From a virus (lineage: Duplodnaviria > Caudoviricetes): 64,000 nucleotides of DNA. The stretch's first letter is position 1, and each line of letters starts with the position of its first letter. Location of the stretch: the IMG/VR virus record IMGVR_UViG_2596583540_000001, positions 1,510-65,509 of that record. One strand, given 5' to 3'. Of the stretch, positions 1-41,793 are shown piece by piece. The notes beneath the pieces were generated by a model. That model saw only the letters and a program-made list of their open reading frames with translations, did no database searches and was not told the origin of the DNA. The translations under genes were made by a program, and so were the position numbers.

Positions 1-3000
1 GGTACGCCCCGGATGATCGTAATAAGCATACAAATCCTTCATATAAGACGGCAGTTCGACTCTCTGCGTTTTCCCATTCTGATCAAGCATCCCTGTCTGC
101 GGATAATACAAATCCTTAATGGATTGTGGGGTTTGACCAGTATAAAGATACTGTGTAACGGCACCTACTAAACCTACCGTAATAGGAAGTGCCAACGCAT
201 ACGACATTTTATATGTCATTTCCGGGTGTCTACCATGAAGCAGATTGTTCATCTGTTCAACAGTGTCAACACCTGCACCCCCCAATTCACGGAAGGTACC
301 TAAGTTCCAGCCAACAGACCGGACGCTTGCCATCGTTAAGTCTTTCAAAGTTTTATTCCAAAACAGATTGACATAGGCCAATTGTCCCATTCTATTATCA
401 ACACTATTCCAAATTTTTCCACCAATTTGCCGCATTTCGTCACGCGTCATATTAGGTTTTCTTGTCATTTCATATCGCATTGCATCAGCCCATACCCCCA
501 ATTTTTGACGAGGTACAATATATTCCATAATAGGTTTTGTTGCTTTATCCATAATGGCAAATGGGATACGCCATACTCCGCCTAAATAGTTCTTAGCATT
601 AAATGCATCGCTCATCTTATCCCACATACCAGTTCTGTAGAATTTATCCATCTGGACACGACCACCGGAAGCAACCAATGCATCTGCAAGTTTGGCAACT
701 TCTGCTCCCTGCGTACCCGGTGTATACCATTCCTTCAAAACCTTATTGCCACGCAAAGCATTTTCAACCGGCGCAATGGGGGCATGAAAGAAATCTTTTA
801 ATCCTGAACCAATATCACCATGAGAAACTTTCAAAAATCCTAACGCCACTTTAGATACAGTAGCATCCATGGAAGTAAAACCTAGATGGAATGCGGAAAG
901 TCCTAATTGGAACTGATTTAAAATATTAGCTGCTCCCAGATACGATCTATACAAACCCGACATGGGACGGCCATGCGTCCGTAATCCCGGTGATAAGTAG
1001 TTGTTAATCAATCGTGCTGCTTCCTTTGGCATATAATAATATCCTCTGATGTGTAATCCGCCAATAGGTTTACCGGTTACATCAACCGGTGCACCATATA
1101 CTGTTGCAATACGATCATCAATCCTTTCCCAGTTATACGGAATATCTTTAGAGGTAGCTTTAATATATTTGGTAAGTCCACGGGCTTTTGCCTCATTTAT
1201 AACATTGTGGGCCATAATATATTTATCCATTTCACGCATTTTAAGCATGGCAATATCCACGGGATTATCACTAACTGGTTTTAGTCCTGATTCTATACCC
1301 TGCTTAGTAGTTGGAATAGAACGTTTCTTCAGAAATGATTTACCACCTTCAAATGGCCGTCTTCCCGCCCACGCTGCAAACAAGTTCCCTGCATGATTAG
1401 GATCTTCCCACATATGCGGAAAGTAATTTACAATAAAATCTTGCAGTTTGCCGGTTCCTAATTGTTGTATAGCTACACGCCGTTCATCCAACATCTTTCT
1501 CAACGTATAAGCAAATTTCTGCAATTCTGGCGTAGATTGACCTCTGCCGGTTTCAATACGGTTTACAAAATCAAGATTGTCTACTGATGATTGTTTGGAA
1601 AAATAACTCCGCGCAGTATGGAGTGCATTTTCAGCACGATCAGCTTTCTGTGCCATCTCAGATAAATTTTCACGCATGATATTGGCCATAGTTTTTGCGT
1701 TTTCACCCGCTGTCGCAGGAGCTAATGTATCTTTGATATCTTTTATGCCATCTGAAATAGTATCTTTAACCGATTGTACAGCTGGCTTTATATCTTGTTC
1801 GTTAAGATTTTTTAATGGATTATTGGAATCATTAACAGGCACACTTGTTCTCTGTTTAAATGCAGTCATGCCATTGTTTTGCTGCTGATACTGATCTATT
1901 AATGATTTTACATTATCAATTTTTGACTTTAAAGCCGGATCATTATCTAGACTCTTTTCAAACGCTTTATAATAATTTGGGAATTCTTCTTTTACAAGAT
2001 CCGGATCTGTAAAATACTTCGAGCCAAAAATAGATACCCCTTCACGCCGTGCCTCTAATGGAGTTAAATTTTGCCCTTTTAGTTGGTTAAGTGCTGTATG
2101 AATCAATTCTGCATTACTCCGCAATTTTAATTTATCATCCACATATTGAGCTACTAACCGGCCATATTTAGACAAGTCAAAACCATTTTTTATTTTACCG
2201 GCAGGAGTAATCGCATTCACGGCCTTTGTGATGTCATCCGGTGTTACGGATTTATCATTAGTTGATTGACCATTATTTTCTCTGATGGAATACTGTCCTG
2301 CATTTTCATTTCTCATATTGACAAGATCTCGTTCGGTTAGTATACTCTGATTAGATAAAGCACTAGATAGTGCAGGACCCACAAGGGTATCTCCTTTGAT
2401 GGCCCGCACCCAATCTAGTGCTTTTGTCTTGTTCGCATATATCAGTTTCCCTGCTTTTAAATTGGCTGCAAACCAATTATAGTTTGGTGTAGACGATCCC
2501 TGCTTTGTACGAGCGTATGCAGTATTAAGCACATTAATAGCATGATGAGCATTATCGTTTTTTTCTAATTGAACAGGAACAACGACACTGGCACCTTGAT
2601 CAGTTTTTAACTCCAATGCCAATACAAATTTATTAACATCAGCTGTTTTAAAAACCATAACAGGATCTGCAATTGCTTTCGGTAACTGTCTTATAATATC
2701 AGTTGTCATTCCGTAGTGCTTTGGCTGTAAAACATGTTCAAAAAAGCTTCCATATACGGACAATTCCTTGTCATTTTTGCTAATCATTTGTAAAACCAAT
2801 GGCATATCCATAACTCTATAAAGACGACCATTGTTATTCTCTTTCCATACTTGTTTATCAGCTTTGTCATATGCATCAACAACATTATTCCATTTTGCTA
2901 TATCTTGATTCAAGTGTTGTTCCTGTACATCCCGTGTTTTAATATCAAGGTGATCCTGATTAATTGATTTTTGTTCTCCTAAGATACGTACATCATAATT

Positions 3001-6000
3001 CAATGTTCCGTCCGTATTAACATATGGTTTCCCTTCACGATCATTGACACCTCGTAATAATTCTGCTACACTGACAGTGTTTAAAGGAGATATCTTCCCA
3101 CCTTGCATACCCATTTGCGGCATGCTTGGGGAGACATCTCCTTTTTGTTGTATCATATCGTAAAACTTAGCATCTCTTATGGTAAATTGATTTGCGTTTT
3201 TATCTCCTTCCTTGGCTACAATTCTAAATCTTACTAATTTGTTGCCATCCTTAACAACGGAGAAAAGTTCAATATAAGGTTTACCACTAGAGTGTCTATC
3301 ATCTATATGCTTCTCAACATATATTGTATTATTTAAAATATTTTTAATAACTGATAAGGCTTTTCCTCTTGTAGCCAACCCTTGTCTTGACAGATTTGAC
3401 GAATTAATTAAATGCCTGCCATCCGAAACAGAGGCTACCCTTCCCGTACCTTCACTACCAATAATAGTAAATGTTTTTCCAATTAAACTTTTAGCTATTG
3501 CCACTTTTTCTTGATTATTTTTTACATTCACTTTTGGCTGATCTGTTACATCTATAACAGGCACACGTGTATCACCTGTAATATTTTTATTCGTTACAGA
3601 GTAATCCTCATCTTTTATATAGTCTGCCTGCTCACCTTCGCTTTTCCACACTTCATTAGTTTTAATCTTCCGCATCACATTATGAACATTTTCCGTCCCT
3701 GTTAAAACAACTTTTATTTTGTTTGCGAAGTCAATTAATTTATGATATAACTTACCAAATATACCCTGTGGTTTAGCCATACCGGCATACTTGGAAAATG
3801 CATCTGCCATTACTTCATTAACATTTACGCCTTGTTTTTTTGCAATAGGATCGTAATGATTCAGCATGGCATCTTTTTCACGCCGTGTTAAAGCCATATC
3901 CCATGCCGCATGAAAAGCTTCATGATAAACTGTTCCTTCTCGGCTGCTCTGTGACAATTCCATTAATCCAGAGAGATGATCGAGAGATGTTTCGCGCCAC
4001 GCCCCTTCAAGGCTGATGGTTGATTTAGGAGAAACACCATGCGCCAATTTTGCGTTTTCTATTTCTTTGCCGTTCCGTATAATTTGATTTTTAATATCGA
4101 CTACAATTCGTTTACCGTTAGGCATATCAACATTTATCAAATTCCCGTCTTGTGAAAATTCACCGGCAGGAAAAGCTCTTTTAACTTCTGCTGCAACATC
4201 ATCATACGCACGTTTAACTTCCGGATGATTTGTTGGAATCATATGATTCTGTCCGGCAACCTGGTATAAGGTAATACCTTTATCTGTTTTTTCTTGTTCA
4301 ACAGTATCAAAAAAGGCATCAAATGCTTTCCGAATTTCAGGCATTTCTTTTGGCTGTACATAAGGATACCCTTTTTCTCTGTCGCCTTTTACATTTGCTT
4401 CCCATGCCGACGCTGGGACGATATTAGCAAGGTAATCATCTGATTCGCCACGTTCTTTTAACTTATCTACAATATAACTTTCAAAGGCACGAGCATATAA
4501 TTCTTCCGGTTTACTCCAATATGGTTTTGAACGGTATTGATCCAATGCTTCTGCCCGTTTCACCATACCTGAATTATAAATAGCTTTGCGAATATCACCC
4601 CACTTCTTTACTATTTCAGGGCGTATTCCTTCAGGCGAATAATATTTGCTGCCTTGTGCTGCTAACCGTACATCAGATGCTGTTGATAAAAATTCATCTT
4701 TTTTACGTTTTGTTCCAAAGAAGTAATCTAAAGCATGTAACCATTCATGTGCTAAACTTCCTGCACCTTCATTCTTTGTAAGATTGATAACATTATGTAA
4801 CGGTTCATAATGTGCCGCTGCCGGGTGCTTGCCGCCAATACCACGGGCACCAAAGGCAAGTCCTAATTGTCCGTTTAATGACAGCGCTTCTGGATCGACA
4901 TCAATAATATTAGCCATATCACGTAGTGAATCATACGCATTATTTAAGTCCGACTGGCGACGTTTGCCTTCCACCCAATTACCAAATTCAACACCTCTGA
5001 ATCCAAATGCCTTACCGAAAATTTCCGGAGTAACATCTTTGCCCTTTCGATAGTTGGTACCAACACGCTGTTCATTTGCCTCTCTGCGTTCATTTGGCAC
5101 ATACTTCATCTGCTTCAGCTGTTCTTCTAATTCTGTTGCATGATTGTCACGATAATTAACTGCATCTTTAACGTTCTTGAATCCATCTTTCATCAAAACA
5201 ACTCGGTTACCAATTTTTTTACAAATTTCATATTCCTTGGTACCACGGTTTATATAAATTCCAAATGACTGCTTTGTTGTATTATCGGCATTATCTCCCA
5301 TAATACTATCATATTGTTTTTTAAATTTATCAATTACCTGTTGTTCGGTATCACCATCAACAACGGTTTTATGAAAGTGCACCTGCCCTTTTTGTGCTTT
5401 TACTATCTCCCATATATGTTTAGGAGGATTATATTCTTTGCCGTCATACATACTATATGTACCTTCTGACAATGTATATTCTTTTAAAGAATGCGCATGC
5501 CCGACTGCTTCATATAATTTGGCATTAGAAACGACATCACGAATACCTTTATGTCCGCTTGAATACAACCTTTTTTCTATTTCATCTCCTTTACCATCCA
5601 ATATCATTTGTGCCATTTTCTTTACAGCATCAACGCCTTGAGCCCAGTATTTTATATCTCTCCGAGGTTTATTGCTAATAGAATCCCGCAATGCATGAAC
5701 AAGAGCTATGGCATGTTTATCTGCCCCCGCCTTTATTAATGCATCATATTTTGGTTCTGGAAATGACTTCGATAATGGTTTGGTTTGAGTATCAATCTTA
5801 TCACTGTCATCCAATTCTTTTTTATAAGAAGTATATATATCTTTCCGTGCGCCGCCTATTTTTTCGCCAAAATCTTCAATTTTAGTAGTTTTGGATTGTT
5901 CATTCTCTATTTTTGTTTCCAAGTTATTTTTGGAATTATTGATTTTGTTTTCACGGTTGGTATTTTTTTGTTTTTCAGCTTGGTCAGATTGGGCGTTTCC

Positions 6001-9000
6001 AATTGTATTTTCAACGGCTTGTCCACCCAAGCGTGCCCGATTGATTTCATTGTTTTCTCCTTTGAATACAGTATCCGTAATATTTTTAGCCTGCTTTAAA
6101 ACGTCCTCAGGGTTCCTGCCATATATGCTGTGCTGAAAATCTCCGGCAGCTCGTTGCGCAGTATCCATATCCAAAAAAGCTTCTGGAAAATTATCGGAAG
6201 AATGATATACCATCCAGTTTGCTAACCTACCATATATATCCTTGAAAAAATCATTATAGGATATTTTTTTTGGTCTGCCTTCCATTGATATAGAAAGCTT
6301 GTTCTGATGAGCATAGTTTTGAAGAATATCTGCCACTTTTTCTGTAGGAACAGGTCCATCATTTCGAATATTATTGACAACAGCCCCAACACCGGCATTT
6401 GTTTCGTTTTCCCATATACCATTGCGCTGATCATATAAAGCATTCAATTTCTGTTGACTAGAGACAGGGATAATGTCTTTATCATCACCAAGTCCCATAT
6501 GTATAACAGAGTCTTCCCCATATTTATTGGCAAGAGCATCTTCCATACTATCAATTTCTTTTTGCACATCATCATACGCAGGCTGCCGTTGTTTATCAGT
6601 TGACACCTTCCCTCGTAATTTATCCTGCAATGTTTGTACCGCTAATGGCTTATTTGCAAGTACATCATTCCGAAGCTTGTTATTAACAGGAATATTATTG
6701 TCATCTGCTAATTTTAGCAGTTGTTTTTCTAGTCGTAATTCCCCAGTGCTGCCCGTTGTTCCTCTGGCGTTTTTTTGTTCCACTCCGCTGTTTTCTTGTC
6801 TAAATAAGCGTTCATTTCCGGCGTGTTCCTGTGCATAAAGGCTTTCCGTTCCGCCAACGTTGGTTTCTTTAGAATTTTCCCGTCCTTGCTCAAATAATGA
6901 TTTTTGTCCATTGTTATTCACCTCATTAATAGAACGTTCAATAATATTTTCAAGAGAAGGTCTTTCCGTACCAAATAATTCTGCTTGGTGCGGATCTCCA
7001 ACAGCCATAATTTTATTGCAGATGGTTTTATATACTTCGCTAATTTTTTTGGTACTGAATTTATTAGCATCAACAAATTCCAAGATTGCCCGTTCTTCAG
7101 GCGATATGGAAGCATCAAACAAACTTGTTTCTTTAAGATAAAAATTAAGCGGTTTCTTAGCATCACGGAGTGACATTAATACTTTAGATGCATCAGACAT
7201 AACTTTTGATATGTCATACTTATAAAGAGTTCCATGGTCTATCCCATAATTTACTTTTGCCACATCGGGAGCTGCAATAATCATTGCTTTTAAAATATTT
7301 TTACTATTATTATCTGTCGATTCACTCATTTTTGCAAGTAATGCATTATCATGATATGCCTTAGCAAACATTGCATTCTTAATACGGCTAACACCATAGG
7401 GAGTAACTTCGTGCTTGTCATTATAAATAGCATTACTGTCATCTTCTGTCTTAATATCTCGTGCCGCAAGTTTTCTAAATTCCCTGTTCCCCGGATTCAA
7501 GAATTCTCCTGTACCATCATCAACAAATTTATTCATGGTAGATAGTTTGAGTTTGTTTGCATCCATTTGTGCTTGTTCTGCCGAACCTAGCCGTGCACCA
7601 CCTTCAGTACTATGAATAATATCTTTGATAGGCGCTTCTTTATCTACTTGGCGAACGAGTATTGGATTATCAATAGCTTGCACTTGTCCTGATGTAAAGC
7701 CAAATTTATTAGCGTTATCTTTTAAATATTGTTTATATCCAGCCGCACTTATTTTATGCTGTCTATCTTGTCCCTCATATGCCCGTTGAATAGCAATAGT
7801 CCGGCCATTACCATTTAAAACAATACCATTTTTATTAACAACCGGGGCCCCTTGATTAACAAATTGACTGTCCGACAGCAATTCAGGTTTAATAGTCCGT
7901 GCCATCTTTTCAACTTGATTGCGCATTTCACCACGCTGCCGATCTCTCGGTTGCAGTTCAATTGGATATTTAGGATTAATAGAATAATCCGTCAGATTGC
8001 TAGTTATCAGGTCACCTGACGGTACCAGTTTATATGTTGCATTAAATCCTTTATCTAATGTATTTGCATGAACACTTGTGACATTGCCTGTTGGTACATG
8101 CTGCATTAATTGTTCCTTTTTGTTTAGATAATTATCTTGTACAAAAGGTTCATTTGTCGATTCTTCCAATGGCTTTGGCGTTATTGATTTTTGCAGCAGA
8201 GAAGACGGTGTATCTTCCTGCTGCTGTTTTAATGCATTCTGTATTTGACTATCCGGCACATGACTTTTCTTTAATTTATCTTGCAAAGTCTGTACTGCTA
8301 AAGGCTTGCTTTCAAGTACCGCTTGACGTAATTTATTATTGACAGGCACTTGATTATTATCAGCTAAATCTAACGGCGTGGGAACATTTTGAATAGGAAT
8401 CGTATTCATATCAGCATTCTTTAAGTCAATCTGTGGATTATTCTGCAAAATATTCCTAATTGCTTCCAAATCTCCGTTTATACCCGCCATCTTAATACTG
8501 TCACGCAGTGCCTCATCCGAGTTATCAGGCAACGAATTTAGGACTAAATCTGCCGTCCGTTGTGCCGTCATAGCATCAATTTGAGGACCATACATATTTT
8601 TCAGCGTATCAATGTTTTCCTGTGTATCGATGAATGGGCTATTATTTTGATCTCCTTTGAACATTGCATCCAAAGTACTTTTTTCATCCGGATTACTATT
8701 TTCCTGACGCTGAATATCAGCTTCTTCTTTTGCCATTTCATTACTGATCTGATCTATTGTATCATCATTAACAATATCATTCATTGCTTTTTGATCTGCT
8801 TGTTCATCCTGTCGAGATGCTTTATCAAATTGATTAATGATATTATCCTGTGTAGAATCAGAATTTATTGAATCGGTTGATGTTCCAGAAGTATCAGACG
8901 TTTTAATAATTTTAGTGGGTTCCAGACCACCCATTTTATTATAATCATCGCCATGAATAATCTTACCTTGACTTGTAGAATTACCAATATAACCACCGTC

Positions 9001-11538
9001 ACCATCGTATAAAACAACATGGTCATCATCGCCATATACAATAACGTCGCCTTTTTGTAAATTATCTTCGCTGAATGGAACAACTCTATCACCAGCATCT
9101 TTTACAAGGGTATCTACATTATCTACCCCTTTCTTTGATTCTTCTGCTAAAAATGGATCATAAAAAGAACCTATTTTGCCAACAGCTTCAACACACCCAT
9201 TTGCACCATTTTCCATTGATTGCCCAATCCACGCTTCTGTACCGGCAGATAAGCCATCATTTGACTCTGTATCAAATTCACCAGTGCCGCCTAAATTATC
9301 ATATGCATTTTGTACTTTACTCAGATATTCGTCATCGCCACCACCATTGTAATCTTGTACACCTTTCCACAAATCACCATCGTCATTAGCTATTTTGTCT
9401 TTCAAAACTGCCATGCCTGCTTCTGCATTCTGTTTCGGATCAGTCTGATAGTCTGGATATAAATCTGCAATTTTTGCCCGGCCACCATTGCCATCATTAA
9501 TATCTGTATCTGGTTCAATCTGAAACATGCCCCCACCATCAGACATTTTTATAGCATTGACATCTCCACCGCCTGTTTCAACTGCTGCAACTGCAAGTGC
9601 TACTTTTGGATCAATGCCTGCATTATTTGCAGCATGTTCAATAATTCCGACATTACTATTATCAGAACTTACAGGAATATCGTCAGAATTATTTTCTTTA
9701 TCGGATACAGATTCCATGGGTATATCTTCTTCATTTTCAGATGTTTCTTCTGGCATTGATGACATCATATCATAGGCAGTATTGACACGTTTCGAGTCCC
9801 CACTGCGCAGAGCATCAAACATTGTATTATAATTATCTTCACCTATTGACTCTGGATCTATATTATCCAGATAATCTGAAAGTTCATTTTCTTTAGATAA
9901 TGTATCAACATCAACAGATGAATCAGGCCTCGTTGCTTGGTCATTATTCATTTGTCCATTATCAGTATTTGCCATGGAAGACATTGGCTCTGTTGCTGAT
10001 TGACTGTTTTCTGTTTCATTGGTATTTGGATTTACCGTTGTTTGTGTATCCTGCATTGTCTGATTCCCGGATACAGTATCCGTTTTAGGCACCATTCTAC
10101 TTAAAACACCGCCAGGAATACCCATGGCTGCGCCACCATAGGCACCTCCGAAGAAAGAAGCTACTTGATCAGGTGTCCATGTATCCGGATTCCATAGATC
10201 GCCCGACGGTTGCCCCATTGCATTATTCTGAATTCCTTGCTGTTCTACTTGCTGTAAACCACCAATTGCCGCGTTTGCAGCAAGTCCCGGTACAGCACGA
10301 GGTACAGCAAGTGCTGCACGTTGTGCGATACTTTCACTTGCTGTAGGTGTAAGATTCCCAAATGTTGCACCTTTCATACCCGCATATTCAACAGGAATAG
10401 TTGCCATATCTACACCTAATGCTTTCACAAATACAGGAAAAGCTTTAAGACGCGCATTAGTTTGTGATTCACCATTTTTTACCATATCATTAATAGTACT
10501 TCCGTAACGGGACGCTGCATCAAGGAATGAAGCCGGAGAAGTCTTAATAAAATTAGTAATAATTTCTTGCCCTACTTTACTGGTTGCTGCCCGTTGTAAT
10601 CCAATTCGGGATAATCCTCTAGTAATTGCACCTGTCCCCGTTCCAACGACAGCTTCAGGAAATAGAGCAGCTGTACCGGCAATAGCGGCTGCCGAACCAA
10701 GCCCTGCACCTATATCAAAAGCGAGTCCCATTGGATTAGTGAAATATTCCATAGATGTATAACTTTTAAATTCTGGTCGTTGCATAGATGCATTTACTCT
10801 ATCCATTCCTTCTAAAGGCGCGCTCCATCCAAAATCATTGGCTGCGCCCGCAAGCATGTTGCCAACTCCCGATACAGCACCTTTTAAAACCCCCGTTGCA
10901 TAAGGATGGTCACTATAAAATTGCTGAGATTGTGCAGTTCTTTCTTCTTCCGGCATTGCGGTACCTTGTTCACCATTCATTTCTGGTAAATTAGGCATAG
11001 ATGGGTCTATATCACTATCAAGAGGACGTTGATAGCCATTTCCTATCGGTTCCGGTGTAAGATATTGTTTTGCCGCTTGTGCAATACTATTTAAGGTTTC
11101 ATTTATTCCAGATTGTTGTGATTGAGCTGCTCGTTTCTCTTCTGGCATTGCAGTTCCAAATTCACCGCCTTGTTCGGGTAAATTTGGCATAGAAGGATCT
11201 GCATCACTGTCCAGGGGACGCTGATAACCGTTCCCTATTTGTACTGGAGTAAGATATTCCTGTACTGTTTGTTTTACATTCCCCAAACCATTACTAATCG
11301 CACTTTCGGCAGCATTCGCTGGCTGTGGATTATCGAATCCACTTACATCTACATCTGATGTATCCGGTAATTGCCAATTATCTAATGTGCTTTTAATTTT
11401 ACCAATTATATTATCAAATATCCCCGGTTGATTTTGTGATTCTTCCGATGTATTTTCTTGTCCATCATCAGTAGATTGTATTTGTTTAATATTATCCGGA
11501 TCTCCAACAACAGATTCTAATTCGCTATAAAAAGACAT
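1..11538 (-). CDS. Giant polyvalent/internal virion protein, at least 3846 aa, 3' end outside window. Domains N to C: SLT lysozyme-like (~9310-9650), NlpC/P60-like (~8900-9250), ddrB-like ParB (~6950-8100), LPD5-like (~5500-5890), LPD1-like (~4300-5100), zincin (~3700-4100), LPD3-like (~3150-3560), MuF-C/PBECR-like (~2430-2900), LPD38-like C-terminal region
   Basis: RBS AGGAGG then ATG at 11538 (MSFYSELESVVGD). Same frame is still open at base 1 (VELPSYMKDLYAYYDHPGRT), and the ORF track lists no terminated ORF from this start. Motifs read manually: AVAAVETGG, GCVEAV..HVVLY, LQPRDR..GAP..GNGRT, IEDFGEKIGGARKD, FRGVEFGNW..LAHEWLHALD, YHEAFH. Domain names are from motif recognition, not HMM searches. 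Confidence 0.9.
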   Translation of the reverse strand, partial: MSFYSELESVVGDPDNIKQIQSTDDGQENTSEESQNQPGIFDNIIGKIKSTLDNWQLPDTSDVDVSGFDNPQPANAAESAISNGLGNVKQTVQEYLTPVQIGNGYQRPLDSDADPSMPNLPEQGGEFGTAMPEEKRAAQSQQSGINETLNSIAQAAKQYLTPEPIGNGYQRPLDSDIDPSMPNLPEMNGEQGTAMPEEERTAQSQQFYSDHPYATGVLKGAVSGVGNMLAGAANDFGWSAPLEGMDRVNASMQRPEFKSYTSMEYFTNPMGLAFDIGAGLGSAAAIAGTAALFPEAVVGTGTGAITRGLSRIGLQRAATSKVGQEIITNFIKTSPASFLDAASRYGSTINDMVKNGESQTNARLKAFPVFVKALGVDMATIPVEYAGMKGATFGNLTPTASESIAQRAALAVPRAVPGLAANAAIGGLQQVEQQGIQNNAMGQPSGDLWNPDTWTPDQVASFFGGAYGGAAMGIPGGVLSRMVPKTDTVSGNQTMQDTQTTVNPNTNETENSQSATEPMSSMANTDNGQMNNDQATRPDSSVDVDTLSKENELSDYLDNIDPESIGEDNYNTMFDALRSGDSKRVNTAYDMMSSMPEETSENEEDIPMESVSDKENNSDDIPVSSDNSNVGIIEHAANNAGIDPKVALAVAAVETGGGDVNAIKMSDGGGMFQIEPDTDINDGNGGRAKIADLYPDYQTDPKQNAEAGMAVLKDKIANDDGDLWKGVQDYNGGGDDEYLSKVQNAYDNLGGTGEFDTESNDGLSAGTEAWIGQSMENGANGCVEAVGKIGSFYDPFLAEESKKGVDNVDTLVKDAGDRVVPFSEDNLQKGDVIVYGDDDHVVLYDGDGGYIGNSTSQGKIIHGDDYNKMGGLEPTKIIKTSDTSGTSTDSINSDSTQDNIINQFDKASRQDEQADQKAMNDIVNDDTIDQISNEMAKEEADIQRQENSNPDEKSTLDAMFKGDQNNSPFIDTQENIDTLKNMYGPQIDAMTAQRTADLVLNSLPDNSDEALRDSIKMAGINGDLEAIRNILQNNPQIDLKNADMNTIPIQNVPTPLDLADNNQVPVNNKLRQAVLESKPLAVQTLQDKLKKSHVPDSQIQNALKQQQEDTPSSLLQKSITPKPLEESTNEPFVQDNYLNKKEQLMQHVPTGNVTSVHANTLDKGFNATYKLVPSGDLITSNLTDYSINPKYPIELQPRDRQRGEMRNQVEKMARTIKPELLSDSQFVNQGAPVVNKNGIVLNGNGRTIAIQRAYEGQDRQHKISAAGYKQYLKDNANKFGFTSGQVQAIDNPILVRQVDKEAPIKDIIHSTEGGARLGSAEQAQMDANKLKLSTMNKFVDDGTGEFLNPGNREFRKLAARDIKTEDDSNAIYNDKHEVTPYGVSRIKNAMFAKAYHDNALLAKMSESTDNNSKNILKAMIIAAPDVAKVNYGIDHGTLYKYDISKVMSDASKVLMSLRDAKKPLNFYLKETSLFDASISPEERAILEFVDANKFSTKKISEVYKTICNKIMAVGDPHQAELFGTERPSLENIIERSINEVNNNGQKSLFEQGRENSKETNVGGTESLYAQEHAGNERLFRQENSGVEQKNARGTTGSTGELRLEKQLLKLADDNNIPVNNKLRNDVLANKPLAVQTLQDKLRGKVSTDKQRQPAYDDVQKEIDSMEDALANKYGEDSVIHMGLGDDKDIIPVSSQQKLNALYDQRNGIWENETNAGVGAVVNNIRNDGPVPTEKVADILQNYAHQNKLSISMEGRPKKISYNDFFKDIYGRLANWMVYHSSDNFPEAFLDMDTAQRAAGDFQHSIYGRNPEDVLKQAKNITDTVFKGENNEINRARLGGQAVENTIGNAQSDQAEKQKNTNRENKINNSKNNLETKIENEQSKTTKIEDFGEKIGGARKDIYTSYKKELDDSDKIDTQTKPLSKSFPEPKYDALIKAGADKHAIALVHALRDSISNKPRRDIKYWAQGVDAVKKMAQMILDGKGDEIEKRLYSSGHKGIRDVVSNAKLYEAVGHAHSLKEYTLSEGTYSMYDGKEYNPPKHIWEIVKAQKGQVHFHKTVVDGDTEQQVIDKFKKQYDSIMGDNADNTTKQSFGIYINRGTKEYEICKKIGNRVVLMKDGFKNVKDAVNYRDNHATELEEQLKQMKYVPNERREANEQRVGTNYRKGKDVTPEIFGKAFGFRGVEFGNWVEGKRRQSDLNNAYDSLRDMANIIDVDPEALSLNGQLGLAFGARGIGGKHPAAAHYEPLHNVINLTKNEGAGSLAHEWLHALDYFFGTKRKKDEFLSTASDVRLAAQGSKYYSPEGIRPEIVKKWGDIRKAIYNSGMVKRAEALDQYRSKPYWSKPEELYARAFESYIVDKLKERGESDDYLANIVPASAWEANVKGDREKGYPYVQPKEMPEIRKAFDAFFDTVEQEKTDKGITLYQVAGQNHMIPTNHPEVKRAYDDVAAEVKRAFPAGEFSQDGNLINVDMPNGKRIVVDIKNQIIRNGKEIENAKLAHGVSPKSTISLEGAWRETSLDHLSGLMELSQSSREGTVYHEAFHAAWDMALTRREKDAMLNHYDPIAKKQGVNVNEVMADAFSKYAGMAKPQGIFGKLYHKLIDFANKIKVVLTGTENVHNVMRKIKTNEVWKSEGEQADYIKDEDYSVTNKNITGDTRVPVIDVTDQPKVNVKNNQEKVAIAKSLIGKTFTIIGSEGTGRVASVSDGRHLINSSNLSRQGLATRGKALSVIKNILNNTIYVEKHIDDRHSSGKPYIELFSVVKDGNKLVRFRIVAKEGDKNANQFTIRDAKFYDMIQQKGDVSPSMPQMGMQGGKISPLNTVSVAELLRGVNDREGKPYVNTDGTLNYDVRILGEQKSINQDHLDIKTRDVQEQHLNQDIAKWNNVVDAYDKADKQVWKENNNGRLYRVMDMPLVLQMISKNDKELSVYGSFFEHVLQPKHYGMTTDIIRQLPKAIADPVMVFKTADVNKFVLALELKTDQGASVVVPVQLEKNDNAHHAINVLNTAYARTKQGSSTPNYNWFAANLKAGKLIYANKTKALDWVRAIKGDTLVGPALSSALSNQSILTERDLVNMRNENAGQYSIRENNGQSTNDKSVTPDDITKAVNAITPAGKIKNGFDLSKYGRLVAQYVDDKLKLRSNAELIHTALNQLKGQNLTPLEARREGVSIFGSKYFTDPDLVKEEFPNYYKAFEKSLDNDPALKSKIDNVKSLIDQYQQQNNGMTAFKQRTSVPVNDSNNPLKNLNEQDIKPAVQSVKDTISDGIKDIKDTLAPATAGENAKTMANIMRENLSEMAQKADRAENALHTARSYFSKQSSVDNLDFVNRIETGRGQSTPELQKFAYTLRKMLDERRVAIQQLGTGKLQDFIVNYFPHMWEDPNHAGNLFAAWAGRRPFEGGKSFLKKRSIPTTKQGIESGLKPVSDNPVDIAMLKMREMDKYIMAHNVINEAKARGLTKYIKATSKDIPYNWERIDDRIATVYGAPVDVTGKPIGGLHIRGYYYMPKEAARLINNYLSPGLRTHGRPMSGLYRSYLGAANILNQFQLGLSAFHLGFTSMDATVSKVALGFLKVSHGDIGSGLKDFFHAPIAPVENALRGNKVLKEWYTPGTQGAEVAKLADALVASGGRVQMDKFYRTGMWDKMSDAFNAKNYLGGVWRIPFAIMDKATKPIMEYIVPRQKLGVWADAMRYEMTRKPNMTRDEMRQIGGKIWNSVDNRMGQLAYVNLFWNKTLKDLTMASVRSVGWNLGTFRELGGAGVDTVEQMNNLLHGRHPEMTYKMSYALALPITVGLVGAVTQYLYTGQTPQSIKDLYYPQTGMLDQNGKTQRVELPSYMKDLYAYYDHPGRT
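2318..2346 (+). promoter_or_regulatory. Internal antisense sigma70 promoter 1
   Basis: TTGACA (2318-2323), 17 nt spacer, TATACT (2341-2346). Confidence 0.8.
2353..2426 (+). ncRNA. Putative antisense hairpin sRNA 1
   Basis: AAAGCACTAGAT (2357-2368) pairs with ATCTAGTGCTTT (2413-2424). Inner stems GTGC/GCAC and CAAGGG/TCCTTTG. Ends in a T run directly downstream of the promoter. Confidence 0.6.
3044..3072 (+). promoter_or_regulatory. Internal antisense sigma70 promoter 2
   Basis: TTGACA (3044-3049), 17 nt spacer, TACACT (3067-3072) preceded by extended -10 TGc. Confidence 0.75.
3079..3147 (+). ncRNA. Putative antisense hairpin sRNA 2
   Basis: AAAGGAGAT-A-TCTTCCCA (3083-3100) pairs with TGGGGAGA-C-ATCTCCTTT (3127-3144). 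Inner GCAT/ATGC stem, then a T run. Confidence 0.6.
5907..6050 (-). CDS. Candidate nested +1-frame ORF, 47 aa, basic
   Basis: AAAGGAG-6nt-ATG; MKSIGHAWVDKPLKIQLETPNLTKLKNKKIPTVKTKSIIPKITWKQK. Overlaps a low-complexity linker of the giant protein. Confidence 0.35.
   Translation of the reverse strand: MKSIGHAWVDKPLKIQLETPNLTKLKNKKIPTVKTKSIIPKITWKQK
6616..8367. repeat. Diverged ~95 bp direct repeats (6616-6712 and 8272-8367) flanking the ParB-like module
   Basis: Encode LADNNQVPVNNKLRQAVLESKPLAVQTLQDKL and LADDNNIPVNNKLRNDVLANKPLAVQTLQDKL. Confidence 0.85.
6729..6911 (-). CDS. Candidate nested +1-frame ORF, 60 aa
   Basis: GAGGTG-7nt-ATG. Helical, charged, natural-looking protein, while the host frame here reads as a low-complexity linker. 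Confidence 0.5.
   Translation of the reverse strand: MDKNHYLSKDGKILKKPTLAERKAFMHRNTPEMNAYLDKKTAEWNKKTPEEQRAALGNYD
10920..11260. repeat. Two-copy ~48 aa internal repeat near the N-terminus of the giant protein
   Basis: YLTP..IGNGYQRPLDSD.DPSMPNLPE..GE.GTAMPEE.R.AQSQQ occurs twice. Confidence 0.85.
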
Positions 11539-11547
11539 GTTGACCTC

Positions 11548-13584
11548 CTAAAAATAATCATCCCAGTTAACATCATTTATAATTGATTGAGCCGTATGCG
11601 GTTCCAAATTGTTACTAATTAAATTTTGCATTGCATCTTTACTATAAGGATTACCTAATGCCTTATTTCTATCCAATCTATCTGTTATCCATTCCATTGC
11701 ATCATTATAATTATTGTTGCTAGTAAGAGGAACTAGTCCATAATTGTCAATAACATCTTTGGCCGGTGCATAAGCAGCAGCTAAATCCTTTTTTTCCTCA
11801 TCAGGTGTATCTGGATTATCATATGCTTTTACGATGGACATTGCATTACTAATTGTTTGTCCATTACCACCATTACTACCTTTGTTATTAGCTCTTATAA
11901 TTCCAAGCTTTTCTTGGGTTTCTAGCTTTAATTTTGTTAATGCATATTGGAAATTCTGTGCAGTCTGCATTTCAGACAGCTTATTTTGATGCGCATTATT
12001 CTGAAGTGCCTCACGAACTTTTCCGTTATTATAAATATCTTCCGTAGTATATCCATGCTGCATTTTCATATTTGATTGTTTATACTGCTGTGCTGTTTCT
12101 GCACGCTGACGAGCATCGTTAGTATTGTAATAATTCAATGCTGTTGGCCCTGTCTTAACATATTGTGCACCTAATGTCGGATTATACTGCATTAATTGTG
12201 AAGCCAAAACATTTGCAGTTGGATAATCTCCTTTTGCAACAGCAGCTTGATATGCCGGTACTATCTTATTGGACATATATTGATCATATTGCTGTTCTTT
12301 AAGATCAGCATCAGGTTTTAATCGGTTAATTACTTCATCAATCTGGTTTTGCGGCATTCCCATTGAATGCATTTTCGCAGTAGCATCACTTACCCACTTA
12401 GCAGAACTGAATGGTTGAGGCGTATATTGTATATCAGAAATCGGCTGTCCTGCCTGAAAGTGAGAGTTTACAGCAGTATTATTTGCATTATTTTGTTGTA
12501 TAGCATTTGCTGCCGTATTTTTATCCATTATAGGAATATCGCCTTTTTCCGCTTGTTGTTCTGCCGTAAGCGGATCACCTTTAGTATTCGGATACACCTG
12601 CTGTCCTGTTTGTGGATTTAATTGTACTTCCGATGTTGCAGGCGTTGAACTTGTATTGGTTTGATTAGTTGACTGCATCGCATTTAATATTGTTTGTGCT
12701 TTTTGTGCCTGCTGTGGCGATAATTGTTGTTGAGATCCTAACGGTTGTATAACTCCATTTTGATTTGAAGCTATCGGTTGCTGTTCCGTTATCGGACCAC
12801 CTTGACTTGTAATTGGTCCACTATTTTTATATGCAGAACCGCTATCAGTTGCTATCGGTTGTGATTCAGTTGGTGCATGATTTATAGCTGAAAGATCAGA
12901 AATTTGTTGTTGTAAATCTGTGTTTTTTGATAAATCAGATGTTACTCCACCACTAATAAAATTACTTAAATCAGGCATCTGTCCATCTGTCGTTATTGTA
13001 GAAGGTGCTGGTATTGAAGTATCTGATGATGTTCCATCTACCCCTTCATTAGACAATACAGGCTGTGTCTTTGCATCATTTCCTGATAGAGTCGCAAGTT
13101 TGCTCATATCAATAAGGCCACTACCATTTACATCTCCCTGATTTGTATTAACAAAATCTGCAAAACTAGTTGGATGCGCATAATTGATAGCATTGTTTTT
13201 GGAATACAATGCTGGAATAAATGCCGGTGCCTGATAGGTTATTTGCCGTGTATTAGGATCATATGTCAATTTATTCTTATCATTCGCTAATGCGCTTTGA
13301 AAGTCAGCTGCTTGCTGTCCGTTATCACCCGCACCACTTTCCAATTGTGGAGCTGAAAATGCCTGTGTATCATTTGATATTCCATTTCCATGCATATCAT
13401 CTAAACCACTTGTTGCTGCCACTCCTTTATCAACGCCCCGTTGATTATACTGATTGTTCCATGCTTCTCCCAATAATTGACCTAATGCAAACATAGGGTC
13501 TTTATAAGCATACATAGCAAAACTAGGAACATTAAAACTACTAGGAGAAATTGCAGGATATTGTAATTTATAGTTATTAGGCAT
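11548..13584 (-). CDS. Putative internal virion/ejection protein (Q/N/S-rich)
   Basis: Long ORF with GGAGG RBS before MPNNYK; position between tail tubular gene and giant protein is typical of podovirus ejection genes. Confidence 0.6.
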   Translation of the reverse strand: MPNNYKLQYPAISPSSFNVPSFAMYAYKDPMFALGQLLGEAWNNQYNQRGVDKGVAATSGLDDMHGNGISNDTQAFSAPQLESGAGDNGQQAADFQSALANDKNKLTYDPNTRQITYQAPAFIPALYSKNNAINYAHPTSFADFVNTNQGDVNGSGLIDMSKLATLSGNDAKTQPVLSNEGVDGTSSDTSIPAPSTITTDGQMPDLSNFISGGVTSDLSKNTDLQQQISDLSAINHAPTESQPIATDSGSAYKNSGPITSQGGPITEQQPIASNQNGVIQPLGSQQQLSPQQAQKAQTILNAMQSTNQTNTSSTPATSEVQLNPQTGQQVYPNTKGDPLTAEQQAEKGDIPIMDKNTAANAIQQNNANNTAVNSHFQAGQPISDIQYTPQPFSSAKWVSDATAKMHSMGMPQNQIDEVINRLKPDADLKEQQYDQYMSNKIVPAYQAAVAKGDYPTANVLASQLMQYNPTLGAQYVKTGPTALNYYNTNDARQRAETAQQYKQSNMKMQHGYTTEDIYNNGKVREALQNNAHQNKLSEMQTAQNFQYALTKLKLETQEKLGIIRANNKGSNGGNGQTISNAMSIVKAYDNPDTPDEEKKDLAAAYAPAKDVIDNYGLVPLTSNNNYNDAMEWITDRLDRNKALGNPYSKDAMQNLISNNLEPHTAQSIINDVNWDDYF

Positions 13585-18303: not shown

Positions 18304-18903
18304 TTACGACGGATCGTCGTTCCATTGATCCGTATCCACGTTGGTACCGTCAATATTCCCACTTTCACTATCCTGCCATGCCGCCATGTGCTTGTTCGGA
18401 TATTGGGACGGGAAATCACATTGCGATACTCCATATTCTGCAATCCAATAGGGAACGTAGTCCGCTAATAAGTTTGGATTAATTGCATTGGTTGCATCAC
18501 CAAATTTACCATCACTGGCATACACACCACACTTCAACCCTGCGTTATTGACGGCACAAATAAACGCACTGCATAATGCCGTAGTATCTACGCCATCAGC
18601 AAAACATTCGTCTGCTTCAATATCGTACCAAACACCTAACGGAGGTACTCTGCCATTCAAATAACTGACTAAGTCATTAGCTTCCTGTGCCGCTTCATCA
18701 GGTACCGTAGCATGGGTAAACAGATATACGCCCCAAGGTAAGTCTTCGTTTTCTACATCCTGCAAGAATGTTTCAAAGTCAGCGTCTTCCTGCTTTCCTT
18801 CTTCAATTTTGATGACAACGCCATCTACACCGTTATTTCGTAAATCGTCAAAATTAAGACCTTCCTGCCAATCAGATATGTCAATTACGTTCATGTAAAT
18901 CAT
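18304..18903 (-). CDS. GH25 lysozyme (endolysin)
   Basis: VIDISDWQ, GVYLF, YDIE, YWIAEYG, WQ..NVDTD motifs. Confidence 0.9.
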   Translation of the reverse strand: MIYMNVIDISDWQEGLNFDDLRNNGVDGVVIKIEEGKQEDADFETFLQDVENEDLPWGVYLFTHATVPDEAAQEANDLVSYLNGRVPPLGVWYDIEADECFADGVDTTALCSAFICAVNNAGLKCGVYASDGKFGDATNAINPNLLADYVPYWIAEYGVSQCDFPSQYPNKHMAAWQDSESGNIDGTNVDTDQWNDDPS

Positions 18904-31355: not shown

Positions 31356-31443
31356 TGGCGGAAAGGATGGGATTTGAACCCATGGAGCAATTCGCTCTCT
31401 TGCTTTCAAAACAAGTACCTTAAACCAACTCGGTCACCTTTCC
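31356..31443 (-). tRNA. tRNA-Ser(TGA)
   Basis: Acceptor GGAAAGG/CCTTTCC plus GCCA, anticodon arm CTTGT-TTTGAAA-GCAAG, variable arm, T arm ATGGG-TTCAAAT-CCCAT. Confidence 0.9.
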
Positions 31444-36507: not shown

Positions 36508-37647
36508 ATGGAATTTGTTTATGACGAAATGAATCAAGATATTGTGAAATTGGCGAAGGACTTTGCCGAAAAACGGCTGTTGCCGACAGTACATGAACGG
36601 GATGAACAAGAAGTTTTTGACCGCTCCTTGGTAAACGAATTAGGAGAATTGGGAATGTTGGGAATACCCTTTCCTGAAGAATATGGCGGTGTCGGTGCTG
36701 ATTATCTGAGCATGGCAATGGCTTGCGAAGAACTCTGCAAGGTCGATGCTTCCATCGGCCTCAGCTTAGAAGTACATACGACATTATGCTCTTGGCCAAT
36801 TTACAAATTTGGCACGGAAGAACAACGACAAAAATATTTAGTACCATTGGCAAGCGGTACCAAATTAGGTGCTTTTGGCCTTACTGAACCGAATGCTGGT
36901 ACGGATGCTCTCAACGGTAGTACAACCGCGATTAAGGATGGTGATCATTACATCCTTAACGGATCCAAAATTTTTAACACCAATGGTGGCGAAGCAGAAA
37001 TCACCGTGGTTTTTGCTGTAACAGATAAATCCAAGGGTTCCAAGGGTTTAAGTGCTTTTATTGTAGAAAAAGGAACACCTGGTTTTACTTACGGTAAACA
37101 AGAAGTAAAGATGGGTATTCATGGTTCCGTACAACGTGAACTTATTTTTCAGGACATGCAGATTCCCGCAGAAAACCTACTCGGAAAGGAAGGCGAAGGT
37201 TTCAAAATTGCTATGATGACCCTCGACGGTGGTCGTGTTGGGGTCGCTTCTCAGGCACTTGGTATTGCCGAAGGCGCTTTGGATCATGCTATCAAATACT
37301 CGAAGGAACGTATCCAGTTCGGCAAACCCATTGCTAAATTCCAAGCTATCAGTTTTATGCTGGCAGATATGAAGGCTAAAGTAGAAGCAGCCCGTTGGCT
37401 AGTCTACAAGGCAGCGTATGATATGTCGACTGGTGCCAACTATACCATGTCAGCAGCTATTGCCAAAAAGGTTGCTTCAGATGTAGCGATGCAAGTTACG
37501 ACAGATGCAGTACAAATTTTTGGTGGTTATGGCTTTACCCGTGAATACCCAGTAGAACGCTATATGCGTGACGCGAAAATTACTCAGATTTATGAAGGTA
37601 CCACACAGGTACAGCAAATGGTTATTGCCGGTGCCTTGTTGAAATAA
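36508..37647 (+). CDS. Acyl-CoA dehydrogenase family flavoprotein
   Basis: FGLTEPNAGTD, LNGSKIF, RDAKITQIYEGT. Confidence 0.95.
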   Translation: MEFVYDEMNQDIVKLAKDFAEKRLLPTVHERDEQEVFDRSLVNELGELGMLGIPFPEEYGGVGADYLSMAMACEELCKVDASIGLSLEVHTTLCSWPIYKFGTEEQRQKYLVPLASGTKLGAFGLTEPNAGTDALNGSTTAIKDGDHYILNGSKIFNTNGGEAEITVVFAVTDKSKGSKGLSAFIVEKGTPGFTYGKQEVKMGIHGSVQRELIFQDMQIPAENLLGKEGEGFKIAMMTLDGGRVGVASQALGIAEGALDHAIKYSKERIQFGKPIAKFQAISFMLADMKAKVEAARWLVYKAAYDMSTGANYTMSAAIAKKVASDVAMQVTTDAVQIFGGYGFTREYPVERYMRDAKITQIYEGTTQVQQMVIAGALLK

Positions 37648-37772
37648 TCCTCCAAAGTAAGAAATGTATTTGTCTATAAACTGTGCAGGCAAATACATTT
37701 CTTATAAAAAAACTTTGTGAAAAATATAACAATGATGTTTTGATTACCTATCATTATCGAGGAGGTTATGGA

Positions 37773-38957
37773 ATGAAACTTTTAGACGGTATTAAAATAC
37801 TTGATTTATCAACAGGTCTCGCCCCTGCTTTGGCAACAAAATACTTAGCTGCCTTTGGTGCTGAAGTCATAAAGGTGGAAAAACCCGGTGCCGGTGATAT
37901 GACACGGAAATGGGAACCACTGAAAGACGGACGGAGTCTATATTTCAATTATCTAAATGGCGGTAAGAAGTCTGTAGCGTTGGATATTGCTTCCGGAGTA
38001 GGAAATGCAATTATTCTGGAATTGGTCAAAAAAATTGATGTTTTTGTAGAAAGCTTCCAACCCGGTTACATGGAAACTATCGGACTGAGTTATGAAATTT
38101 TGCAGGATATCAATCCAGATTTAATTTACGTGCAATATTCTACGTTTGGTGACAACGGCCCCGACAAGAACCGCCCGGGCTCTAGTCTTGTGGCCCAGGC
38201 CAAGAGCGTAGCCATGGACATGACCGGTGTCATTGGACAGGAACCCATCAAATTGGAACCTTCTGTTGGAGAACACTATGCTTCCGGCAACCTAGCTGCC
38301 GGAATTATGCTGGCTTTAATCAACAGGGAACGCCATGGCGGCGGACAAAAGTTAGATGTTTCTCTCGTCGATTCACTGTTCAACTGTATTGAAGCAGCAC
38401 CGGCAGCTTATTCGACAGTCGGAGAAATCCATACGCGTAAGGGTAATTTTGACCCGTCCTGTGCTCCTTATGATACGTTCAAGACAAAAGACGGTTTCAT
38501 CGCTATCGGCATTGCCACCGATGCCCAATGGTTCAAATTTTGTGATGCCCTGGAACTGAAACATTTGAAAGAAGATTCGCGTTTCCAGACCAACGAAGGT
38601 CGTGTCGATGATTATCTCAACAAGTTGCGTCCCCTTGTAGAAAAGGAAACCATGATTTACACGAAAAGTGAAATCGAAGAAAAATGCCGCGTCGAAGGCA
38701 TTCCCTGCAGCGCCGTTTTTGATATCAGTGAAATCATGTCTCACCCAAATACGAAAGCTAATCATTTCATGTGTGAATTGGAAAGCAAACAGTTCGGACA
38801 GATGTGTGTACCCAACCTGCCTTTTGAATTAGGTAGAAGCACAGCAGAAATTTCCTGTGATGGCCCGGAACTTGGGGCAAACACAGAAGAAGTATTGGAC
38901 GGCCTCGGCTATACAGCAGATGCCATTAAAGAATTTGTTGAAAATCAACATTGTTAG
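37773..38957 (+). CDS. Family III (CaiB/BaiF) CoA-transferase, subunit with Glu at the catalytic Asp position
   Basis: GAEVIKVEKP, NGGKKS; PSVGEHYASG. Confidence 0.9.
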   Translation: MKLLDGIKILDLSTGLAPALATKYLAAFGAEVIKVEKPGAGDMTRKWEPLKDGRSLYFNYLNGGKKSVALDIASGVGNAIILELVKKIDVFVESFQPGYMETIGLSYEILQDINPDLIYVQYSTFGDNGPDKNRPGSSLVAQAKSVAMDMTGVIGQEPIKLEPSVGEHYASGNLAAGIMLALINRERHGGGQKLDVSLVDSLFNCIEAAPAAYSTVGEIHTRKGNFDPSCAPYDTFKTKDGFIAIGIATDAQWFKFCDALELKHLKEDSRFQTNEGRVDDYLNKLRPLVEKETMIYTKSEIEEKCRVEGIPCSAVFDISEIMSHPNTKANHFMCELESKQFGQMCVPNLPFELGRSTAEISCDGPELGANTEEVLDGLGYTADAIKEFVENQHC

Positions 38958-38967
38958 GAGGATACCT

Positions 38968-40146: not shown

Positions 40147-40159
40147 GGAGATGAAATTA

Positions 40160-41728: not shown

Positions 41729-41754
41729 AAACGAAACATGTCATGAACGCATGA

Positions 41755-41792
41755 AAAAAGAAGCCTTATCTGTACAAATAGGCTTCTTTTTT
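41755..41792. terminator. Bidirectional terminator
   Basis: AAAAAAGAAGCCT...AGGCTTCTTTTTT between convergent genes. Confidence 0.8.
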
Positions 41793-41793
41793 G

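Follow-up and report, generated by a model that had tools for sequence, protein, structure and literature searches.

Why should the strand opposite a giant phage gene carry what reads as a complete small gene of its own, with a promoter, a long hairpin and a terminator-like tail? The question is raised by a 64,000-nucleotide stretch of viral DNA (Caudoviricetes; IMG/VR record IMGVR_UViG_2596583540_000001, positions 1,510 to 65,509), hereafter the window, whose minus strand encodes a giant polyvalent protein and whose plus strand carries, behind the LPD3-like domain of that protein, an element termed here unit 2. An earlier note, made from the letters of the DNA, had described the element as an antisense arrangement of promoter, hairpin and U tail and had favoured a non-coding RNA, a proposal that is supported by promoter conservation, covariation and a comparison of the two strands across homologous sequences. 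The same comparison establishes, at the level of sequence, a conserved antisense unit that is selected at its promoter, RNA structure and terminator in many distant relatives. With moderate confidence, unit 2 is read as a complete gene whose predicted product is a small cis-antisense RNA of ~70 nucleotides (nt), which probably silences a late mRNA or excludes related superinfecting phages. The features on which the argument turns are as follows, in window positions.

3044..3049, plus strand: -35 box TTGACA of unit 2, read from the sequence and followed by a 17-nt spacer
3064..3072, plus strand: extended -10 of unit 2, with TG at 3064-3065 and TACACT at 3067-3072
3079..3153, plus strand: predicted antisense RNA of ~72-75 nt, placed by promoter geometry and ending within the T-rich tail
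3083..3144, plus strand: hairpin of unit 2, 62 nt, with an outer stem of 3083-3100 paired with 3127-3144
3145..3153, plus strand: T-rich tail TTGTTGTAT, the U-tract of an intrinsic-terminator-like end
3040..3075, minus strand: codons of the conserved tail peptide VSVAELLRGVND, which bear the antisense promoter (from translation and homologue comparison)
3083..3147, minus strand: codons of the variable linker, about residues 2798-2819, predicted to be disordered
3196..3495, minus strand: core of the LPD3-like domain (Pfam PF18798)
1..11538, minus strand: giant polyvalent-protein gene, which runs off the window and has its stop codon 621 nt beyond the window start

The promoter string of unit 2, TTGACA-17 nt-TGcTACACT at 3044-3072 on the plus strand, confirms the extended -10 that had been read there. 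The site scores 10/12 in the promoter scan, is TG-extended, and has everything expected of a sigma70/sigmaA-type promoter (a TTGACA-like -35, a spacer of 16-18 nt, TAnnnT and, optionally, TG). Both hexamers are written across codons of the tail peptide: the -35 is the reverse complement of ..T GTC AA., from the codons Gly-Val-Asn, and the -10 that of AGT GTA GCA, the codons Ser-Val-Ala. Promoter-like sites alone are not enriched, being as common in the region scan (55) as in shuffles (48.1 +/- 6.7), and a looser definition of the unit has a background in the own genome, with 18 hits among the first 512 of 2141 candidates. Both points favour a chance resemblance in AT-rich coding DNA, or else a replication primer or origin signal, and it is across homologues that this explanation can be weighed.

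Homologues of the LPD3-like segment were identified by protein and profile search in 23 of 401 sampled genomes of the same class, in 37 of 222 genomes of the same order, and in 3 of 401 genomes sampled from the phylum, the own genome being counted. A profile built from an alignment of four sequences recovered four named genome records (Acidaminococcaceae, Acidaminococcus, Mitsuokella) and three IMG/VR viral contigs. A single-protein query for related loci gave pattern matches only, among which no relative was confirmed, and a DNA-level search within the family gave only short, weak matches. Against phage and plasmid collections there was no match by megablast of positions 1-12000, nor by tblastn with the residues around unit 2 and a canonical LPD3 homologue. 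For the comparison of promoters, a pattern defined on protein alone returned 60 hits, 43 of them distinct, and after removal of one false positive (L017 +1078) left 42 non-redundant tail peptides. The homologues thus assembled are kin of one bacterial class, together with one genome from another class and the three viral contigs.

In all 42 homologues the strand opposite the tail peptide reads as a -35 box, 17 nt and TAnnnT. The -35 box is TTGACA in 35, TTGACT in three, TTGACG in two and TTTACA in two, so that the seven departures each amount to one mismatch, and the -10 box is TATACT in 15, TATAGT in nine, TACACT in six and one of ten other forms in the remaining 12. The codons that build the hexamers are close to fixed when set against a background of 30,681 codons from the same reading frames. 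Valine is GTC in 40 of 42 cases (background 0.16; binomial P = 2e-29, a value that takes related sequences as independent), lysine is AAG in 27/27 (background 0.35), isoleucine ATA in 29/29 (0.26) and serine AGT in 22/24 (0.20), and the same holds for Val GTA (10/10), Thr ACT (12/13), Ala GCA (13/14) and Gly GGT (17/20). The spacer between the boxes varies and serves as an internal control for kinship among the promoters; its leucine is encoded by all six codons. Moreover, every codon at position 2 of the peptide begins with A and position 3 is always an NTA codon, and from these alignments even the amino acids of the tail peptide look nucleotide-driven.

The TG extension is distributed in the same sense. 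It accompanies 17 of the 18 weak -10 boxes and only 2 of the 24 that read TATACT or TATAGT, a compensation that is expected of a working promoter. Together with the frozen synonymous sites and the free spacer, this points to selection on the hexamers and not on the protein. At the seventh position past the -10 box, 35 of 40 units have A, which fits a start site; unit 2 has G there, at 3079, and the predicted RNA start is placed on this base from the promoter geometry. An unbiased set of loci, chosen by the LPD3 profile, gives a consistent picture, with at least one complete unit in 27 of 29 (one of the misses, L076, is cut by a contig end). Both strands of 320 kb of fetched loci hold 88 distinct units, 57 of which lie antisense to a long open reading frame (ORF) and two in sense, while the remaining 29 fall where no long ORF exists, for the most part in remnants of decayed genes.

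Conservation of this kind, the orientation bias and the covariation described below are not what chance resemblance would leave across homologues. As for an origin signal, promoters of the Frpo or single-strand-origin (sso) type have their -35 and -10 boxes within an intrastrand stem, and unit 2 does not: a fold of 3000-3180 leaves the hexamers outside the main hairpin, with a weak 6-bp pairing touching the -35, and a promoter of this single-stranded type was rejected. The explanation by chance or by an origin is accordingly given a very small probability, and chance is close to excluded.

Ten bases separate the end of the -10 (3072) from the first arm of the hairpin, which begins at 3083. The two arms are 18 nt each, 89% complementary and 26 nt apart, with a small inner helix within the 26-nt loop; read by sequence, the stem has 17 bp with one A·C mismatch and one G·U pair, in agreement with the interrupted 17-bp stem and U tail of the earlier note. 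With the stem-closing TTT included, the tail reads TTTTTGTTGT. The whole has the layout of an intrinsic terminator, in which a stem at 3083-3144 (-28.9 kcal/mol) is followed directly by TTTTTGTTGT; this terminator is a prediction and its loop of 26 nt is unusually large. The plus-strand fold has z = -4.0 and the minus-strand fold, at -35.4 kcal/mol, z = -6.7, and in neither case was any of 200 shuffles as good. When the whole 64 kb was folded in sliding windows of 90 nt, the top two on the minus strand were those at 3061, in unit 2, and at 2341, in the companion unit 1 described below.

Within the stem, AAAGGAG (3083-3089) pairs with CTCCTTT (3138-3144), as had been pointed out when the motif was taken to be a sequestered Shine-Dalgarno-like sequence. 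The pairing stands, but no special meaning need be attached to it, the arms being codons of the linker for Lys/Gly/Glu and Ser/Pro. Nor is there a convincing ORF behind the motif, as had also been judged. Among the ORFs of at least 40 amino acids listed for the window, the only one on the plus strand is 3103-3237, with a TTG start and 44 amino acids; it reads through the terminator, and in a decayed copy of the unit on contig C27 of the own genome a 1-nt insertion falls inside it and would shift its frame. A type I antitoxin was considered and rejected, the gene overlapped by the unit encoding a protein of 4052 amino acids and the plus strand offering, in that same list, the 3103-3237 ORF alone (most type I toxins are smaller than the 40-residue threshold). 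In Rfam, the only hit of the window at the gathering score is a tRNA, and at E <= 1 there is only a chance hit of a miRNA model at 2547-2599. A dispersed palindromic repeat, of the REP, MITE or RPE-like in-frame insertion kind, was likewise rejected, as the 75-nt hairpin matches only the window and C27 copies in the own genome.

A hairpin that ends directly at a T-rich stretch was found in 41 of 41 homologous units with enough flank (one unit at a locus end was skipped), under a definition of hairpin and tail that was self-set and lenient. These hairpins start a few bases past the predicted RNA start, and 39 of the 41 are single and closed, with lengths of 54-97 nt. Antisense z-scores ranged from -2.2 to -7.3 in the 18 units tested, all 18 being negative. 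The stem sequences vary between units and the pairing is retained. In an alignment that joins unit 2 of the window and its C27 copy to three units of sister genomes, 11 of 26 pairs have changed on both sides, and 92.3% of the cells are paired compared with 46-64% when the arms are slid against each other. In a second alignment, of six units, both sides have changed in 16 of 27 pairs and 97.4% of cells are paired. For both alignments, none of 500 shuffles reached the observed covariation score.

An alternative is a structure in the mRNA of the polyvalent gene, and the earlier note had named a hairpin that functions only as minus-strand mRNA structure as the case that would undo its proposal. 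Such a structure might pause ribosomes or promote frameshifting at the domain boundary, after an A-rich run, the promoter being accidental. An A-rich run does precede the hairpin on the sense strand in all units, and in the window the sense fold is the stronger (-35.4 vs -28.9 kcal/mol). Across the 41 units, however, the two strands differ in the other direction. On the antisense strand the folds have 147 G·U pairs and six single A·C mismatches; on the sense strand there are 34 G·U pairs, and 40 A·C mismatches stand where the antisense strand has G·U. Stability too favours the antisense fold, in 37 of 41 units and by a mean of 7.6 kcal/mol (unit 2 of the window and its C27 copy are among the four exceptions). 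Taken with the covariation, this asymmetry of mismatches and stability argues that the structure is selected on the strand opposite the target gene. A sense-strand structure would moreover leave the frozen synonymous sites of TTGACA-17-TAnnnT and the TG compensation unexplained. Contradicted by the promoters of the homologues, by covariation and by the strand comparison, this is the least probable of the readings considered here and, like chance, is close to excluded.

The pairing data also bear on whether the RNA itself matters. A backward promoter with its own terminator could act as a polymerase roadblock, as a device of transcriptional interference or as a topological device in the late operon, in which case the act of transcription would be what counts and the RNA would be a by-product. 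Near-consensus promoters with an immediate terminator, and a hairpin sequence that is free to vary, would suit such a device. A long covarying hairpin at the 5' end of the RNA would not be needed for it, terminators could be far shorter, and selection on pairing at the RNA level, as seen in the G·U asymmetry, points to a stable RNA product. A roadblock is consequently regarded as unlikely, though it is not negligible.

Unit 2 has a companion in the same gene, which is the reason for its number.

2318..2436, plus strand: unit 1, with TTGACA (2318), 17 nt, TATACT (2341-2346), a hairpin and a T-rich tail

The hairpin of unit 1 has perfect 12-nt arms (2357-2368 and 2413-2424), and opposite its promoter lie the codons of QSILTERDLVNM, the peptide that closes the MuF_C domain. 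The two units share their geometry, as had been noticed at the outset: the first arm lies 11 nt after the -10 in both (3072 to 3083 and 2346 to 2357). Among 14 non-redundant homologous MuF_C tails, TTGACA is kept in 12 and TG occurs only beside weak -10 boxes. A hairpin with its tail is present in all 14, 13 fold more stably on the antisense strand, and G·U pairs total 54 in the antisense folds against 7 in the sense folds. Further peptides of the form [ST][IVL]x6V[KN], such as STIQKELGIVK and HSIQEWLAKVK, also bear units. The occurrence of units at LPD3, at MuF_C and in other peptide contexts shows that the design is general to these genes and not confined to one domain.

The complete arrangement is rare. 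In the 64 kb of the window, a scan of both strands for a promoter, a closed hairpin within 3-12 nt and a T-rich tail returned three sites, at 2318, 3044 and, marginally, 2169. The last, at 2169-2300 on the plus strand just upstream of unit 1, has TAGACA-16-TATTTT and a 101-nt hairpin of -26 kcal/mol; it lies within the background rate of the loose scan and looks like background. The own genome (2.9 Mb, both strands) has 149 exact TTGACA-17-TAnnnT sites, seven of which enter a closed hairpin followed by a T-rich tail, and the strongest three of those seven are unit 1, unit 2 and the decayed unit 2 copy on contig C27. A site at position 658 of contig C21 in the same genome (plus strand; TTGACA-17-TATAGT, a 75-nt closed hairpin of -26.7 kcal/mol and a T-rich tail, with HTISYDRIFVK on the opposite strand) may be a further unit of the family.

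The C27 copy lies in a 335-nt decayed remnant of an LPD3 tail (C27:11681-12015; L002 ~1500-1835), beside an HNH-like ORF. Its frame is broken by the 1-nt insertion, which falls in the hairpin loop, and by stop codons. Despite this, the unit is identical to that of the window at 103 of 110 positions (93.6%), compared with 138/168 (82.1%) and 44/56 (78.6%) in the flanks, and its better preservation fits selection on an RNA gene independently of the protein. Clusters of units are found elsewhere, with five complete units in L073 (692-1510, minus strand) and four in L023 (941-1947), each in ~1 kb without long ORFs; two of the cluster units are tandem duplicates. These clusters could represent arrays of RNA genes that stand alone, but decay or poor assembly of polyvalent genes could also account for them. 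Two units also lie on contig NZ_JNKR01000041 (L038) of the cultured Mitsuokella jalaludinii DSM 13811.

That promoter and stem-loop cassettes recur at domain ends raises the possibility that they are junctions at which modules are shuffled, that is, recombination sites resembling the elements termed PeSLs. The [ST][IVL]x6V[KN] design does stand at the ends of at least two domains (LPD3 and MuF_C) and in further peptide contexts, and homology to most relatives stops shortly after the LPD3 tail (~46% of residues 2640-3100 are covered). Polyvalent proteins are described as highly mosaic in the pertinent part of PMC5512222, and PeSLs, in the corresponding part of PMC2839356, as sigma70 promoters with stem-loops that mediate modular shuffling. 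In the units considered here only the two hexamers are conserved, and neither the spacer nor the hairpin, leaving little continuous identity for homologous recombination. Compensation between TG and -10 is a signature of transcription, and the breakpoints of homology lie downstream of the unit and not within it. Shuffling at these junctions is therefore held to be rather improbable.

The units sit within the protein in a consistent manner. Homologous proteins share a layout of core, a linker that varies in length and sequence, and the conserved tail peptide (VSVAELLRGVND in the window). The LPD3 segment was modelled with AlphaFold2 (mean pLDDT 76.9), and inside the domain confidence is low over one long stretch only, where pLDDT falls below 50: model residues 161-172, which are residues 2806-2817 of the protein. 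On this model, the hairpin of unit 2 occupies the part of the protein predicted to be least constrained, the U-tract lies opposite Lys/Gln codons and the promoter opposite a short peptide. A fold search with the model gave no PDB match at E <= 0.001, only weak NTF2-like rows, and no RNA-binding fold.

These features suggest how unit 2 would work as the gene of a small cis-antisense RNA. A host-type (sigma70/sigmaA) promoter, written opposite the conserved-peptide codons at the end of the LPD3-like domain, would start transcription ~4 nt before the long hairpin, which is encoded opposite the disordered, hypervariable linker, and transcription would end at the U-tract opposite the Lys/Gln codons. 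Host RNA polymerase would thus make from the prophage a stable RNA with a closed 5' end and full complementarity to the late mRNA for the giant injected protein. Such an RNA could pair with mRNA of the polyvalent gene, whether transcribed leakily from the prophage itself or from a superinfecting relative that shares the linker, and pairing would lead to cleavage or silencing of the mRNA. In this manner a probably harmful gene would be kept quiet in lysogens, or related superinfecting phages would be blocked, or both, with the variable linker as the determinant of specificity. Antisense-controlled plasmid incompatibility offers a parallel for specificity that is set by sequence.

A small RNA that acts in trans, on a host or phage target elsewhere, or that is bound by or packaged with the polyvalent protein as its partner, would also be stable and abundant, and the units do always accompany particular protein domains. 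A shared target or binding site would require some primary sequence to be kept in hairpins or loops across units, and none is kept; furthermore, the LPD3 model lacks an RNA-binding fold, with no match at E <= 0.001. An action of this kind is considered quite improbable.

Several points weigh against the reading of unit 2 as a cis-acting antisense gene. The homologues are mutually related and the P values consequently overstate their independence, the leniency of the hairpin definition applies to all 41 units, and those of L020 and L029 have longer, branched hairpins. Units 1 and 2 of the window fold as well or better on the sense strand. The start, the end and the expression in lysogens of the unit 2 RNA are all inferred from sequence; a look for RNA evidence in four small-share sequencing runs gave only short contig pieces, at 2200-2316, 2591-2750, 2621-2653 and 2789-3009, all of them outside both units. 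A further difficulty is the position of the target, 8.4 kb within an ORF that is translated, a setting in which antisense pairing tends to work poorly. Finally, an induced prophage would have to escape its own RNA, a difficulty that is likewise stated for the Salmonella antisense RNA STnc6030 in the passages that describe it.

A wider proposal, which is put forward tentatively and is itself more doubtful than the reading of unit 2, would be that [ST][IVL]x6V[KN] domain-closing peptides are kept mainly for the host promoter on the opposite strand. The polyvalent modules would then carry linked genes for antisense small RNAs, the hypervariable linker hairpins would set the specificity of immunity in an RNA-based superinfection exclusion among phages with a domain module in common, and such genes might survive as stand-alone defensive small-RNA genes, of which C27 and the L023 and L073 clusters would be instances.

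The setting of the gene is that of a temperate prophage, with an integrase, a CI-like repressor and a late operon. Its complete protein has 4052 residues and contains SLT, ddrB-ParB, LPD5, LPD1, LPD3-like and MuF_C domains, which identify it as a phage-type polyvalent protein in the sense used in the relevant section of PMC5512222. The LPD3-like match to PF18798 scores 18.1 bits here (E = 0.003; cut-off 27), and homologues score 27.8 (L008) and 58.8 (L013). The third most structured spot of the giant gene, at 10231-10343, has interleaved direct and inverted repeats with a TACAGCAAG-like word; its z is -2.65 on the sense strand, and the promoter and terminator design is absent from it. The first landmarks of the prophage are the following.

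43.6-51.6 kb: recombination and replication genes of the temperate prophage
52862-53254: CI-like repressor
56233-57468: integrase

Onward the order is terminase, portal, major head protein, tail fibre and endolysin, with the giant gene last, next to a host racemase gene that converges on it. A tRNA gene between terminase and portal (31359-31443, minus strand; Rfam 59.2 bits) covers the opening 25 nt of the longest portal ORF, so that the portal gene probably starts further downstream. Between the early and late regions, 36508-43173 is a block of metabolic and regulatory genes, among them an acyl-CoA dehydrogenase, family III CoA-transferases and a sigma54 activator, at a G+C of ~0.44. Beside the integrase, 58607-61642 (minus strand) encodes a 1011-amino-acid protein with metallophosphatase and STAND-NTPase parts, in DNA of very low G+C (0.25-0.30), and looks like a defence gene. 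A second endolysin gene at 63110-63709 (minus strand), which matches the same PHROG endolysin families (best phrog_291) as that at 18304-18903, suggests an adjacent second prophage.

If the proposed role is right, the locus would be a case of natural dual coding, in which ~40 codons also spell a promoter, an RNA hairpin and a terminator, and these fix both the codons and the amino acids allowed. It would also be a caution that conserved peptide motifs at domain ends need not be protein features. The units would make up a family of small RNAs, open to test, in prophages of gut Negativicutes, bacteria for which, to our knowledge, almost no phage regulation has been described. Should the RNAs exclude related phages, they would add a new, sequence-programmable layer to competition between phages, tied to the most mosaic of phage genes.

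A search of the full-text literature found no description of antisense units in polyvalent-protein genes. The text of PMC5512222 lacks the word 'antisense', LPD3 is given no function in its passage there and the precise functions of LPD domains are called elusive, and the portions consulted of a 2025 review of phage small RNAs (PMC12197685) hold nothing of the kind of unit 2. The design is nevertheless related to systems that are well described. PeSLs of T4-type phages, as characterised in the main account (PMC2839356, in part), likewise combine a sigma70-consensus promoter with a stable stem-loop terminator and occur in many copies in the most mosaic parts of the genome. They are intergenic and gene-directed, however, and drive a downstream ORF with its own Shine-Dalgarno sequence, with a stem-loop that overlaps or precedes the promoter, whereas unit 2 has its promoter first and its hairpin second, and lacks a downstream ORF. 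Being intragenic and antisense, with no conserved ORF, unit 2 was rejected as a PeSL cassette on the features given in that account.

A closer likeness is to the antisense RNAs of mobile elements. IS10 RNA-OUT, P22 sar and plasmid CopA and RNAI are all small cis-antisense RNAs of this kind. To these can be added lambda OOP, P22 sas and P1/P7 c4, as listed in passages of PMC7067206 and PMC12197685. Like them, unit 2 has a host-type promoter, constitutive in those RNAs, in or beside the gene, a predicted product in the range of ~70-100 nt that is essentially one stable stem-loop, and it would act by perfect complementarity, such that specificity shifts with sequence. Their targets are translation starts, leaders and replication primers, whereas that of unit 2 would be the middle of a 12-kb ORF, and its promoter, unlike theirs, is co-encoded with a conserved peptide.

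The design as a whole resembles known prophage antisense RNAs, and by analogy the closest tested precedent is STnc6030 of the Salmonella prophage BTP1, which is antisense to DNA-injection and tailspike genes, is made in lysogens and excludes BTP1, though not P22 (PMC7067206, PMC12197685, in the passages that concern it). Both RNAs are prophage-encoded, lie antisense to a late gene for an injected or DNA-injection protein and have no ORF, and the lysogen expression and sequence-specific exclusion reported for STnc6030 are what is proposed, as a counterpart, for unit 2. STnc6030 is ~786 nt long and belongs to a single locus in one phage lineage, with no conserved hairpin design in its description (PMC7067206, as far as it covers the RNA). 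The units here, in contrast, have a predicted RNA of ~55-100 nt and a fixed order of promoter, hairpin and terminator, stand several to a gene within its codons, and are found class-wide.

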